This document shows positions 1 to 5,788 of a stretch of 64,000 nucleotides of DNA, one piece after another. The notes below the pieces were generated by a model. The model did no database searches. It saw only the letters and a program-made list of their open reading frames with translations, and was not told where the DNA came from. The stretch is taken from the IMG/VR virus record IMGVR_UViG_3300023055_000005; one strand, written 5' to 3'. Positions within the stretch are counted from its first letter, which is position 1. Each line of letters begins with the position of its first letter. Source of the DNA: a virus. Its lineage: Duplodnaviria; Caudoviricetes. The position numbers and the translations under genes were made by a program.

Positions 1-420
1 CCGCCGACTGAGTAAGACGAACTCGCTCCACGACACCCCATACCGGTCCTTGATCCCGTTGATCATGTACCGATACATCTTGTGCTCAAGCGGGCCGTAA
101 GACCCGTATTGCTCTTTGGGGTGCATGGCAACAGCAGCCATGGGGCGAAGATCTACATCCCCCGTCTCTTCAGTGTAGCGAGAGTCGTGGTAGAAGATCC
201 CGTAGTAGTCGTCGTACTCCTCCATGCACATCAACTGCACTGACATGGAGTCAACTTCCGAACTGACCGTAGCCAGCAGGTTGTTGTGCGGACCTAGATC
301 GTTGACCTTATCCAACCCGAAACGATCAAAGACTACATGACCGTTCGGGTCTTCTTGTTCAAGGTCTACATCACAGAGGCGGAAATCGCCTTCGCTGTGC
401 GCTGGCCGAGGAGCGTGAAA
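1..420 (-). CDS. Partial conserved phiKZ-like ORF running off the window start; possible -1 frameshift (T-like) partner of the 568-aa gene
   Basis: Frame is open from above 420 down to 1 (..DPNGHVVFDRFG..MEEYDDYYGIFYHD..HKMYRYMINGIKDRYGVSWSEFVLLSRR). First ATG is at 246 with only a weak SD. Absent from the ORF track because it has no stop in the window. Confidence 0.75.
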
Positions 421-2072
421 AAAAGTCGTGTCACGTCGAGCGGCAGCAGGCGCGGATGCTTGGAGCCTTCCACGGTCTGCGGGGCGGAACAGACACGGCA
501 GTTGTAGCGCGGGATCGCCACCATTGCCACGGTCACCGAGTCGATGAACTTCTGCACGCCTTCGGTGAAGCGCTCCACCACGTCCTGGCGGCTGGAGATT
601 TCGCCGAGCAGTTCGACGAACGATTCACGCACGTCATCCTGGTCATCTTCTTCCGGGTTGAAGGTGAGCACACCTGCAACTTCTTCTTCCTTGTTCTTGA
701 AGATGATGCGCTTGACCCAGTGGCTGTACTGACGAGCGGTGGCCATGCGGGACTGCGCCATGATGTACTGGTCGCGTTCCTGCCCTTCCAGGGCGGTGCC
801 GAAGGCCGCGTCCACGCGCTCTTCGATGGAGTTGATCCATTCGAAGGAGGACTTCTCGTACAGCTCCACCGTGGGGACGGCGAACTCGACGTAGATGTCA
901 TCGCTGATGGCGCACAGCGCGGTTTCGGCGTAGGAGTGGCTGTTGACGTACTCGGTCAGCTCTGCGTCGTTGCTCTTCTGCGTACGACGGGCCATCAGCT
1001 TGCGCTGGCTCTGGCTCAGTGCACGACGGTCCACGAAGAGCAGGCGCGAGAGGTTCAGCACTTCTTCTTCGATGTGCTGGCACTGGCCGGTGTGGTTGGT
1101 GCACGGACGGGCCAGCGGGTAGCCGTTGGGGTTGTTGATCAGACCCAGCTGCAGCATGAGCAGCGGGATATCGGTGATCAGCATCTTCTGCTTGATCGAT
1201 GCCGGGGAGATGTCCTTCAGCGTGCTGTCGTACATCTTGCTGATGGCGAAGTTCGTCACCGTCAGCTGATGGTAGACGTTGTTGGCCGAGAAGGCCAAGC
1301 CGCCGGAGACACGACCCAGGGAGATCTTGCTGTTGCCCAGCTGCTGTTCCAGTTCCAGCATCTCGCCTTCACCCGGCGCCTGCAGCGACACCCAGAAGCC
1401 GGAGTGCCACATCGGTGCCTGTGCCAGCGAACCCACGCCCAGACGCGCCTTCAGGCGGCTCTTGGCTTCTTCGCCGGAGACACGGCCGTTGGTGGTGGAG
1501 TTGCCGCCGGTGGCGATCGGACGGCCGATGGCCAGCTCTTCGCCGTTGTGGTCAACAGTCTGCTGCCAGTCCGAGCCTTCGCGACTCAGGGCACGGCTGC
1601 CGTACTGACCGGTGGGCATCAGGCGCGAACCACGAGCAGCACCTTCCAGCCAGCGGATGATTTCCGGCGTCGGGGTGAGGTTGAGGTTGCCCATGCTTTC
1701 ACCGACCGGAGCGAACTCCTCGGCGGTCTGGTTCAGGGACCACAGGTGGAAGCCCTTCTCCATGTCCTGCGCTTCGGCTTCGGTGGCCAGCGGACGGGTG
1801 ACCGGACGGGTGAGGGTCACGGTCTTGCTCGGCGGCACGGCTTCCGAGCGCTTGGGCTGAACGCGACGCGCGGCGTCGGCGGCGAGCACACGTTCCTGCT
1901 TGCCGATCGGGGTCTCGACATTGGTCGCCGGGTCTTCGACGGAAGGCGGGTCAGCCGGGGTACGATCATGGTTCACGAACGTGCGCGGGTCGTCAACCGG
2001 GATCGCTGCCGCCTCGACGGGCGTTTCCACGGGTGGCTGGTCGTCGATGTTCTCGTTGGGATCCTGCGTCAC
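366..2072 (-). CDS. Conserved phiKZ-like protein, possible baseplate-hub/tail assembly chaperone (T4 gp26-like Cys motifs)
   Basis: 568 aa, GGAG SD before GTG, biased codons, PCTNHTGQC and CRVC Cys clusters, lies next to the gp80 block. Function is inferred. Confidence 0.6.
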   Translation of the reverse strand: MTQDPNENIDDQPPVETPVEAAAIPVDDPRTFVNHDRTPADPPSVEDPATNVETPIGKQERVLAADAARRVQPKRSEAVPPSKTVTLTRPVTRPLATEAEAQDMEKGFHLWSLNQTAEEFAPVGESMGNLNLTPTPEIIRWLEGAARGSRLMPTGQYGSRALSREGSDWQQTVDHNGEELAIGRPIATGGNSTTNGRVSGEEAKSRLKARLGVGSLAQAPMWHSGFWVSLQAPGEGEMLELEQQLGNSKISLGRVSGGLAFSANNVYHQLTVTNFAISKMYDSTLKDISPASIKQKMLITDIPLLMLQLGLINNPNGYPLARPCTNHTGQCQHIEEEVLNLSRLLFVDRRALSQSQRKLMARRTQKSNDAELTEYVNSHSYAETALCAISDDIYVEFAVPTVELYEKSSFEWINSIEERVDAAFGTALEGQERDQYIMAQSRMATARQYSHWVKRIIFKNKEEEVAGVLTFNPEEDDQDDVRESFVELLGEISSRQDVVERFTEGVQKFIDSVTVAMVAIPRYNCRVCSAPQTVEGSKHPRLLPLDVTRLFFTLLGQRTAKAISASVM

Positions 2073-3534: not shown

Positions 3535-4855
3535 CTATTTCCTCCTCGCCATGAACAGCGGGGCATACCGCTGGAAGGCGTGGACGATCGAAGCGTTCGC
3601 TGTCACCAACCTTGCCGCCAAGGATCAGAACCGCAAGGCTGACCCGTGGACCGACCCGGAAGGTGCAAAGCAGCCTGGTGGCTATCCGTGTTCGCTGTTC
3701 TGCGAAGGCGATGTGGTGTGGTTCCATCATCCGGAAAGCGGCGAGCGCATTGTCATCGAAGACATCAAGCCGATGACCCAGCCGTTCAACTTCATGGACG
3801 AACTGGAGATCACCCCGGATGAAGTACCGAACCTGGACAAGGCAACCGTCACCACCTACGGCAACCTGCTGTTCAACTTCAACGTGTTCGTCTACGCATT
3901 CGGCGATGTGATGCCTTACATCAACGGGCCGGTCAAGGTTCGTAAGCTGGAGGCAGAACTGGAACGCCGGATGTACGATGACGGTGAGACTCCGCCTGAA
4001 GGTGGTGTCACCATCGCGCAGTATAAGAAGTTCGCTGAAGCCATGCTCTCGCTGGCTGGCCTGACGCAGCTGTGCGTACCGGCAGCTACTCCCAAGACGC
4101 TCGTGGTCAACCCGGCCATTATCAAGCGTCGTGACGAACTGCTGGCAGAGAACAAGGATCGTCTCCATGACCCGGCGGTGATTGCCGACATCGAGAACGA
4201 GCTGATCGCCATGGATCGTGCGGACTTGGCTGGCGATGAGAGCATGGGCTTCTTCATCGACAACAAGTCCTTCGACATCGTCCGTAAGAAGACGCTGATC
4301 ATGCACGGTGCCGAGTCTGCGTTCCAGGACGGCAACCATGTCCAGCTGATCCCGACCTCTCTGGATGAAGGCCTCGATCCGGACTACATGACCGAGTACG
4401 CCAACTCGCTGCGTGAGGGTTCCTACGCCCGTGGCACGTTGACGGCACTGGGTGGTTCGAAGGTGAAGGAAACCTATCGAGTCTCACAGAACGTGAGCGT
4501 CCAGCCGGAAGACTGCGGCGTGAAGTTCGGCATCCCCACCCTGATTCCGAAGGGGAAGGAAAAGTTCTACATCGGCAACTACTACTTCGAGAATGGCAAA
4601 CAAGGCCAGGTCACCGAAGAGAACGTGTCCGATCTGCAGACCCGTGCGATCGAAGTAAGGTCGCCCATCTATTGCCATGCGGAAGGCTCGAACTACTGCC
4701 GCTTCTGCGTAGGCGATGCGCTGGCCTCGGCTCCCGAAGCAATCCCCACCCTGCTGGCTGACGTCGGCTCGGACATGATGGGTCGCTTCATGGCACTGAT
4801 GCACGGCAAGAAACTCTCCACGGCCAAGTACGATTTCAAAACGGCCATTTCGTAG
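3521..4855 (+). CDS. gp80: Virion RNA polymerase beta-prime fragment (phiKZ gp80-like)
   Basis: Beta-prime-type motifs GSYARG..LGG..K, EDCG and RSPIYC..YCRFCVG (Zn site); N-terminus MLKRDYFL; position next to a gp82-like polymerase. Confidence 0.9.
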   Translation: MLKRDYFLLAMNSGAYRWKAWTIEAFAVTNLAAKDQNRKADPWTDPEGAKQPGGYPCSLFCEGDVVWFHHPESGERIVIEDIKPMTQPFNFMDELEITPDEVPNLDKATVTTYGNLLFNFNVFVYAFGDVMPYINGPVKVRKLEAELERRMYDDGETPPEGGVTIAQYKKFAEAMLSLAGLTQLCVPAATPKTLVVNPAIIKRRDELLAENKDRLHDPAVIADIENELIAMDRADLAGDESMGFFIDNKSFDIVRKKTLIMHGAESAFQDGNHVQLIPTSLDEGLDPDYMTEYANSLREGSYARGTLTALGGSKVKETYRVSQNVSVQPEDCGVKFGIPTLIPKGKEKFYIGNYYFENGKQGQVTEENVSDLQTRAIEVRSPIYCHAEGSNYCRFCVGDALASAPEAIPTLLADVGSDMMGRFMALMHGKKLSTAKYDFKTAIS

Positions 4856-4912
4856 CATGGTATGCAGAATGCCAATGCTGCCCAACAACTTCATTGACCC
4901 AGAGGTATAAAC

Positions 4913-5788
4913 ATGTCGTATCAGCAGAAGAAGCTCAAGGACTGGACCGATGCCGATTTCAAGGCCTGGTCGCAGGCCGGCGCCGAGAATGTCAACGGCA
5001 CCAAGAACACCGTCATCTTCAACCGTGCCCGCGGCCGCTTCGAAGGCGCAGCTGATCTGGATGATGCCGCACTGATCGGCCTGCTGAGCCAGCTGGAAAT
5101 CGAAGGCGAGGCTCCGGTTGCCGAAGTCGCCTCGGCCAGCGAAGAAGACGCCGGCCCGTCCGAAACCGTCGAAGGCGTCGTGCTCGACGAAGCTCCGACT
5201 GCCGAAGAAACCGAAGCTGCCGAGCGTGTCGACAGCGTCGTGGAAACCCCGGTCAACACCCGCGCTGAACTGGACGCCGTGCCCGACGACATCGCCGGCC
5301 CGAACACCCCGACCCCGCGCGTTGCCACGGTGAAGGAAAACGTGTTCACCCCGATGGGCAAGCTGACCACCGACGTGCTGGTGCGCAGCGAGCTGGAGAC
5401 CTACCTGAAGGAAATGGCTCCGGGCAAGGCCGTCAGCGCTGACCGCGTGGTCGAACTGCAGCTGCGCCTGTGGCGCGTCATCAAGCGCGTGCTGAGCTCC
5501 AACGGTAGCGACTTCAGCGCCAGCTTCGGCTACATGCTGCAGGTCTTCGCCGAGAACGACACCAAGCACTTCCACGTCGACCGCATCATGCGTGGCTTCA
5601 ACCGCATCGGCGCCCGCCTGCCGGCCCGCGAGTTCAACGCGTTCCGCAACATGCTGGACACGATGAAGCTGCTGGGCAATCCGGCCACCCGCAAGATCAC
5701 CCTGACGCAGACCGATCTGCCGTACGCTCTGCGCCATCTGGGCGATGAAGAGCAGGGCAAGGTCCGCGCGTACTTCGAAGGCCTGTAA
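4913..5788 (+). CDS. Conserved hypothetical protein (gp81-like by synteny) with acidic linker
   Basis: 291 aa, strong codon bias, GAGG SD, TATG at 4861 upstream. Confidence 0.75.
   Translation: MSYQQKKLKDWTDADFKAWSQAGAENVNGTKNTVIFNRARGRFEGAADLDDAALIGLLSQLEIEGEAPVAEVASASEEDAGPSETVEGVVLDEAPTAEETEAAERVDSVVETPVNTRAELDAVPDDIAGPNTPTPRVATVKENVFTPMGKLTTDVLVRSELETYLKEMAPGKAVSADRVVELQLRLWRVIKRVLSSNGSDFSASFGYMLQVFAENDTKHFHVDRIMRGFNRIGARLPAREFNAFRNMLDTMKLLGNPATRKITLTQTDLPYALRHLGDEEQGKVRAYFEGL

Follow-up and report, generated by a model that had tools for sequence, protein, structure and literature searches.

Two programmed -1 shifts of double-stranded DNA (dsDNA) phages are the closest described systems for the locus studied here. 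In lambda, slippage into the -1 frame close to where the upstream open reading frame (ORF) ends gives a short and a long tail chaperone, gpG and gpGT, in a fixed ratio, and this shift is kept by many phages although their sequences have diverged (Levin 1993; Xu, Hendrix and Duda 2004, as cited in PMC5009743); neither product is found in the virion (PMC5009743). The 10A/10B frameshift of T7 (Condron, Atkins and Gesteland 1991, as cited in PMC5009743) is a minority -1 event on the U-rich heptamer G_GU_UUC close to the capsid protein gene's 3′ end and yields a C-terminally extended second form of one protein, with no canonical nearby pseudoknot and a stimulatory contribution that is distant (PMC5009743). 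Here we describe a gene pair in a 64,000-nucleotide (nt) stretch of Caudoviricetes DNA (IMG/VR record IMGVR_UViG_3300023055_000005; "the window" below is this whole stretch), where a minus-strand gene for a 568-amino-acid (aa) protein of the phiKZ gp77 family carries a slippery U run 16 codons before its stop, with a long open -1 frame beyond it. On comparative evidence, we consider it highly probable that this run directs programmed -1 ribosomal frameshifting in a core gene of the nucleus-forming jumbo phages (Chimalliviridae).

The locus shares features with both systems. As in lambda, the -1 shift would lie near the end of the upstream ORF and give short and long products in a fixed ratio, the arrangement is conserved over many phages whose sequences have diverged, and solved virion structures likewise contain no member of the gp77 family. 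The first-pass annotation of the window had compared the pair to lambda G/GT, and the likeness holds for the logic of the arrangement but not for the proteins or their surroundings: no sequence or fold relation to G or T was found, there is no adjoining tape-measure gene (RNA-polymerase subunit and helicase genes lie nearby instead), the upstream protein is four times the size of gpG, and the heptamer is U-based, not G_GGA_AAG. Membership in the tail-chaperone (G/GT) family was rejected, as there is no Pfam or PHROG chaperone match and the gene context is wrong. With T7 the locus shares the dsDNA phage setting, a U-rich heptamer near the 3′ end of a gene, a predicted second form extended at the C-terminus, and the lack of a canonical nearby pseudoknot. 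It differs in that the T7 product is a capsid protein, whereas here a core protein that is apparently non-virion would be extended, in that the extension comprises an entire conserved domain (about 170 residues), and in that the site is conserved family-wide.

Reading frames at the proposed slip site

The elements of the predicted shift in the window are as follows.

366..2072, minus strand: zero-frame gene, 568 aa, GTG start, giving the short product (ORF list, PHROG match, GenBank notes and AlphaFold2 (AF2) model)
417..423, minus strand: slippery heptamer U_UUU_UUC in X_XXY_YYZ phase, overlapping a seven-T run at 424-418 (sequence)
1..417, minus strand: predicted -1 frame extension, 139 codons in the window and continuing past its start (translation)
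366..416, minus strand: dual-coding overlap between the end of the zero frame (16 codons and stop) and the start of the -1 frame (17 codons)
313..315, minus strand: TTG, first canonical start in the -1 frame, with no Shine-Dalgarno sequence and 3′ of the codons for an invariant His, Phe and Gly
244..246, minus strand: ATG, taken as the start of a separate 119-aa gene by the annotation of Xanthomonas phage Xoo-sp14 and by the automatic gene call for the phage's own contig

Read in the 568-aa ORF's frame, the minus strand is ...GTG ACA CGA CTT TTT TTC ACG CTC ... GTG ATG TAG, and the protein ends in ...DVTRLFFTLLGQRTAKAISASVM at the stop. The codons at the slip are CTT (425-423), TTT (422-420) and TTC (419-417), which encode Leu550, Phe551 and Phe552, and the Phe-Phe pair lies 16 codons ahead of the zero-frame TAG at 368-366. 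Past the slip, the -1 frame reads FF followed by HAPRPAHSEGDFRLCDVDLEQEDPNGHVVFDRFGLDK... and is without a stop from about 640 to base 1, including 69 open codons upstream of the T run. The phage's own contig (L043, from Logan), recovered by exact protein look-up, contains the full -1 extension of 176 codons (4656-5183), so that residues 1-552 plus the extension would make a long product of about 728 aa. The two forms would have masses of about 62 and 79 kDa; those of phiKZ would be 533 and 687 aa long. There is no ATG, GTG or TTG in the -1 frame between about 640 and the TTG at 315, and the first ATG, at 246, has a weak GGAAG 5′ of it. The predicted diagnostic tryptic peptide across the frameshift junction is LFFHAPRPAHSEGDFR, followed by LCDVDLEQEDPNGHVVFDR.

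The first-pass annotation had noticed the heptamer in zero-frame phase 16 codons before the stop, a -1 frame free of stops to the window edge, the lack of an ATG in that frame before 246 and a bulged hairpin about 17 nt downstream, and each of these is borne out by the sequence, the hairpin by a minimum-free-energy fold. It had also called the slip codons CTT and TTT rare. This is so for TTT, which accounts for 10% of the Phe codons in the window (63 vs 546 TTC), but not for CTT (346 of 1508 Leu codons in 36 long ORFs).

Taken by itself, the heptamer is within chance expectation for the window: TTTTTTY has 15 overlapping matches against 8.3 expected, and at least 15 were seen in 7 of 100 shuffles. 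A long open off-frame is likewise unremarkable at 60% G+C, and the significance of this one comes from its conservation in relatives. Since a T run and an open off-frame in a single sequence are within chance, the case must rest on those relatives.

Conservation across the gp77 family

The 568-aa protein matches phrog_4585 (E 1.8e-98), and GenBank notes on PhiPA3 and 201phi2-1 equate the homologues phiKZ gp77, 201phi2-1 gp136, PhiPA3 gp074 and EL gp47. A tblastn search with the protein found matches in 214 phage records, all of them phiKZ-like jumbo phages, and an exhaustive HMMER search recovered 1287 gp77-family clusters at 50% identity. By these matches the gene is classed as a member of the phiKZ gp77 family (phrog_4585), which is shared widely by phiKZ-like nucleus-forming jumbo phages. 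For the downstream ORF the match is phrog_12109, with 201phi2-1 gp135 and PhiPA3 gp073 as counterparts.

Junctions were compared in 13 GenBank phages, 29 IMG/VR loci, the phage's own contig and six metagenomic contigs that represent the hardest cases, which together give 39 distinct sequence contexts, plus phage RTH11. A phased slippery U run is present at the codon pair aligned with Phe551-Phe552 in all 39 contexts, in relatives that range in composition from the AT-rich phiKZ to GC-rich Xanthomonas phages. It takes the forms U_UUU_UUU, U_UUU_UUC, G/A_UUU_UUU, G/A_UUU_UUC and C_GUU_UUU; phased U_UUY is common to all 39, and the full X_XXY_YYZ heptamer occurs in most.

Frame lengths were taken from 33 distinct contexts (GenBank, IMG/VR and the own contig), 32 of them complete, with the window copy ending at its edge. 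The -1 frame past the slip is open for 151-179 codons in 32 of the 32 complete contexts, and for the remaining six, inspection by eye shows it continuing without a stop into the homologous domain. The +1 frame stays open for at most 26 codons in 27 of the 33. In phiKZ the -1 frame is open for 165 codons, an off-frame length that is not expected by chance in so AT-rich a genome. The first ATG, GTG or TTG in this frame lies 8 to 85 codons past the slip (85 in phiKZ), and in four contexts a GTG further upstream precedes the first post-slip start codon. The position of the first start codon is not conserved, so annotators have picked different starts: TTG was chosen in Noxifer and 201phi2-1, and the ATG chosen in PA1C cuts the conserved GH...FG motif of the -1 product.

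The U run does not simply follow the amino acids it encodes. Phe-Phe is kept in 148 of 154 cluster representatives, and all six representatives without it keep a slippery run together with an open homologous -1 frame, the runs being U_UUU_UUG, U_UUU_UUA (twice), CUU_UUU_A, GUU_UUU_U and, in contig L049, G_GGU_UUU. Where Phe-Phe is present, the first Phe codon is TTT in every context read, GC-rich phages included, and the window phage has TTT at Phe551 despite its 9:1 bias towards TTC.

Two genes are annotated in every database record and automatic gene call examined. Among the best 150 of the 1287 cluster representatives there is no in-frame fusion, which indicates that the two-frame layout itself is maintained, an expected outcome if the phage requires both forms at a set ratio. 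The homologue comparison that the first-pass annotation had named as the way to check its claim thus goes in its favour, with slippery run and open -1 frame both kept in relatives, and a programmed -1 shift that joins the downstream ORF to the 568-aa gene is strongly supported by the comparative evidence.

RTH11 (L004, OQ790161, about 1480-1700) has seven T at the slip compared with eight in LucasX and L042. With one T short, its annotated upstream coding sequence (WJJ54901) runs on for about 65 codons in the third frame, matching neither product; the missing T is probably a homopolymer sequencing error.

Coding evidence in the -1 frame

The -1 translations align from the first post-slip codon (alignment A5) and share the motif D-x-R-x-S-R-L-x-[IV]-D-L-x-D-P-N-G-H-V-x(5)-F-G. 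Three invariant residues of the -1 domain, His27, Phe33 and Gly34, are all encoded upstream of the window's TTG at 315. From the zero-frame stop to codon 40, the variable columns of five clades number 48, 39 and 95 at -1 codon positions 1, 2 and 3, a third-position excess with a chi-square p of 3e-7. Between the window and Xoo-sp14, the nearest sequenced phage (86% nucleotide identity), the differences in the codons from 310 to 246 are mostly synonymous in the -1 frame, including a TCG-to-AGT serine switch. By this coding pattern, the stretch between the slip and the annotated starts is translated. Nucleotide identity peaks in the 30 nt past the slip in each of five separate clades (as a tie in one of them). 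The signal, the open frame, their conservation and a -1-frame coding signature upstream of any start codon can thus all be read directly from the aligned sequences. The ATG at 244..246 is probably not the true N-terminus of the downstream protein, and the small downstream "gene" would be mainly or wholly the 3′ part of the long form.

A further constraint is seen in three Xanthomonas phages, the window phage, Xoo-sp14 and L041 (87% identical). In the overlap at 366..416 the window is identical to Xoo-sp14, and one base differs in L041. Positions 467-310, from about 45 nt 5′ to 105 nt 3′ of the run, are almost invariant among the three, and the flanks are about 85% identical. After the zero-frame stop, only 4 of 55 columns vary at 310-365 (minus strand), compared with about 20 of the next 49, and just one of the four changes is synonymous. 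Because the invariant block reaches 55 nt past the zero-frame stop, dual coding cannot account for all of it, and the pattern suggests a constraint at the RNA level on the 310-365 block in these phages.

Proposed mechanism and points against it

In the proposed mechanism, most ribosomes would finish the zero frame at its TAG (368-366) and yield the 568-aa protein, while a fraction would pause with tRNA-Phe on CUU UUU UUC, re-pair one base back and continue with CAC GCU CCU... in the -1 frame. The shift would swap the last 16 residues, most of the final helix, for the conserved 176-residue domain, preceded in the long form by a Pro-rich linker, to give the protein of about 728 aa. The common minimal element would be the phased U_UUY, which permits re-pairing of tRNA-Phe. 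That the ribosome and not the polymerase slips, how efficiently it does so, and what the shift is for are points that we infer.

Two candidate stimulatory hairpins lie 3′ of the heptamer in the window.

372..399, minus strand: bulged hairpin CACAG-cga-AGGCG/CGCCU-CUGUG, 10 bp (minimum-free-energy fold), 17 nt 3′ of the heptamer
315..350, minus strand: second hairpin, 13 bp with a one-base bulge (fold of 300-416, z = -3.3)

The second hairpin sits in the near-invariant block past the zero-frame stop, and the same bases encode the conserved DPNGHVVFDRFG motif. L041 has one uncompensated change in each of the two hairpins. Only the Psa21 clade and L046 stand out in folding (z about -3). Psa21-clade loci (L006, L018, L020, L024, L025, L027 and L040) have a long-range stem, UUGGCGGGC ... 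GCCUGUCAA, that spans +4 to +70 nt past the slip, starts 4 nt after the run and has z scores of -1.6 to -3.5; this modelled, clade-specific stem could be a local frameshift stimulator.

Several observations weigh against a programmed ribosomal shift. The usual spacer between a -1 slip site and its stimulatory structure is 5-9 nt, and the 17-nt spacing of the window's first hairpin is beyond this. The change in that hairpin in L041 is an uncompensated U-to-A in the outer stem, and a role for it as a frameshift stimulator is possible but unproven. No conserved 3′ structure was found when the 75 nt past the slip were folded in 38 distinct loci (mean z -0.29 vs -0.38 in control windows), nor was any Shine-Dalgarno-like motif seen in the 30 nt 5′ of the slip. 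Re-pairing in the P site would be imperfect in several clades (G/A_UUU_UUY, C_GUU_UUU). Phe-Phe is also under constraint as protein, so that coding constraint could explain part of the conservation of the U run. Some clades, such as that of Psa21, have an ATG 18 codons past the slip, and this and the window's ATG at 246 leave room for some independent initiation. Contigs assembled from RNA sequencing (RNA-seq) drop rare variants, so a minor population of transcripts with an extra U would be missed in them. Concerning the missing structure, T7 gene 10 offers an earlier example of a shift with none close by (review PMC5009743); because accepted sites such as this also do without a nearby element, its absence lowers the expected efficiency and not the membership in this class of sites.

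Alternative explanations

The most serious rival, which we nevertheless consider improbable, is that the phage or host polymerase slips on the T run so that some transcripts gain one U, which would produce the same fusion. Bacterial polymerases slip on runs of 7-8 T (review PMC5009743), such runs are present in many of the relatives, and phiKZ-like phages have unusual multi-subunit polymerases of their own. The run of RTH11, one T short, also shows a length that is error-prone in sequencing or in nature. Against this, Noxifer, PA1C, L033, L046 and L049 have only 4-5 T, at which transcriptional slippage is inefficient. The run of L049, G_GGU_UUU, is a classic two-tRNA heptamer that fits ribosomal slippage only, and the codon phase of U_UUY is always kept, even where the amino acids have changed. 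In phiKZ-infection RNA-seq contigs from four studies the T run has the genomic length, so that the bulk of the mRNA is unedited, although this is a weak test of slippage.

Slightly less probable again is that the pair is what all records and automatic gene calls list, two separate genes, with the downstream ORF initiated at TTG 315, ATG 246 or a non-canonical start, or by reinitiation, and the U run conserved merely because the upstream protein needs Phe-Phe. This view can draw on the Psa21-clade ATG, on the weak GGAAG before ATG 246, and on the Phe-Phe pair itself, which is invariant in protein alignments and opens the last helix in the AF2 model. It accounts poorly for the absence of any positionally conserved start, as in phiKZ, where the first start lies 85 codons into a conserved domain of 165 codons, and for invariant domain residues encoded ahead of the window's first start. 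The -1-frame coding signature begins directly past the zero-frame stop, and the length of the -1 ORF is constant when counted from the slip and not from any start codon. The run also survives in relatives that have lost Phe-Phe, and even GC-rich phages use TTT for the first Phe. The least credible alternative, which we regard as very remote, is a functionless coincidence of a T run and a chance open off-frame in a GC-rich genome. In the window alone it would be hard to dismiss, given the 69 open codons upstream of the run, the lack of significant TTTTTTY enrichment and the presence of long shadow ORFs in such DNA, for example a 566-aa ORF on the plus strand opposite the gene; the same layout recurs, however, in 39 distinct relatives of widely different composition, with a conserved -1 protein sequence. 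Programmed -1 ribosomal frameshifting remains by a wide measure the most probable explanation.

Predicted structures and possible function

For the 568-aa protein, the AF2 model is confident (predicted local distance difference test (pLDDT) 85, predicted template modelling score (pTM) 0.82). That of the -1 domain is moderate (pLDDT 66), with a confident C-terminal helical part, and its search against BFVD matched only its own chimallivirus orthologues. Among solved structures neither sequence nor fold gave a match for the 568-aa protein, and the Goslar virion paper makes no mention of Goslar's family member; together these results suggest a non-virion protein. Foldseek of the 568-aa model against the PDB gave nothing below E 0.1, the best Z of a wide structure comparison with VIA-align was 5.1, within noise, and the supplements of gradient profiling by sequencing (Grad-seq) have no PHIKZ077 entry.

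Against BFVD, Foldseek matched the 568-aa model to its own orthologues and then to T4-like models named "baseplate hub assembly protein/chaperone" (E 4.5e-5 to 1e-3, template modelling (TM) score about 0.5 by target, root-mean-square deviation about 8 A). T4 gp26 and gp51 both belong to PF12322 (T4_baseplate), which of all Pfam families is matched by the largest number of gp77-family members, yet this number is just 2 of 63, with a best E of 0.014; the window protein has no match to it, and no family match scored above the gathering score. Comparison of profiles by hhalign gave the gp26 family a probability of 1.3%, which is not significant.

The first-pass annotation had been reminded of the T4 gp26/gp51 pair, and the predicted-fold and weak Pfam matches agree with this, whereas the profile-profile comparison does not. 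A Cys pair in mid-protein and, at the C-terminus, a CxxC ahead of Phe-Phe-x-Leu-Leu are common to both families; the end of T4 gp26, ...CPECG...FFELL (...CPECGKTHAHVIRGLKEFFELL; L051:3803-3830), resembles CxxC ... FFTLL of the gp77 family (window 417-470). T4 gene 26 also has two products, by way of an internal start annotated as 26'. Proteins of the gp77 family are 2-3 times longer, and T4 gp26 ends three residues past its Phe-Phe, which is encoded by TTC TTT with no slippery run and no extension. T4 gene 25 starts in the -1 frame and overlaps the gene 26 stop by one base.

From the fold models, the gp77-family protein may be distantly related to T4 gp26/gp51, the chaperones of baseplate-hub assembly, a possibility that we hold tentatively and to which we would give somewhat less than even chances. 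If it is, the short and long forms could serve assembly at a fixed ratio, in the manner of lambda G and GT. The combined proposal, that every nucleus-forming jumbo phage frameshifts a much-enlarged, gp26/gp51-related non-virion protein into two forms as a baseplate-hub counterpart of G/GT, is a little more doubtful still; if true, it would be a second, independently evolved case in which frameshifting sets the ratio of two assembly factors.

Gene neighbourhood

In all annotated loci fetched, a gp78-like gene lies upstream and the small ORF downstream. Around the pair lie genes like gp78 and gp79 and genes for an RNA-polymerase subunit and a helicase, and beyond the -1 ORF comes either a macro-domain gene or a terminator. 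In the phage's own contig, a gene for a 153-aa protein with a macro domain (PF01661, E 1.3e-4) begins at the -1 ORF's stop (L043:5186-5647, minus strand, just past the window start). Such genes are also found 3′ of the small ORF in three distant metagenomic relatives (L046-L048), and Xoo-sp14 is without one at this position.

At the other end of the 568-aa gene, its GTG start overlaps the stop of a 197-aa upstream gene as GTGA (2069-2072, minus strand), and an AGGAG lies 8 nt 5′ of this start. The 197-aa gene is the gp78 counterpart by position, and the overlap suggests translational coupling of the two genes. The plus-strand ORF of 566 aa opposite the 568-aa gene (456-2156) we take to be a shadow ORF of GC-rich coding DNA and not a gene.

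Significance

A full-text literature search, which included the large 2016 recoding review, found no description of the slip site; matches to "gp77" reflected the gene numbering of other phages and were set aside. The site is unannotated in the database records read and would belong to a type of recoding already known, here conserved across the phiKZ-like nucleus-forming jumbo phages. These phages, phiKZ and its relatives, are among the most studied, for the phage nucleus, for RNA polymerases of their own and for therapeutic use, and the pair is annotated as two unrelated hypothetical genes in every record read, the second often shortened to begin at a start codon chosen arbitrarily.

Should the frameshift be real, some 170 residues that form a domain are mis-annotated family-wide and are mainly the C-terminus of a protein of 690-730 aa, and knock-outs, tagging, transposon sequencing (Tn-seq) and interaction studies of either "gene" would need to be read again. 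The shift would then be a family-wide phage recoding event beside that of the tail chaperones, with an unusually minimal signal, a phased U_UUY without conserved structure. For the function of this widely shared gene, baseplate-hub assembly offers a testable lead.

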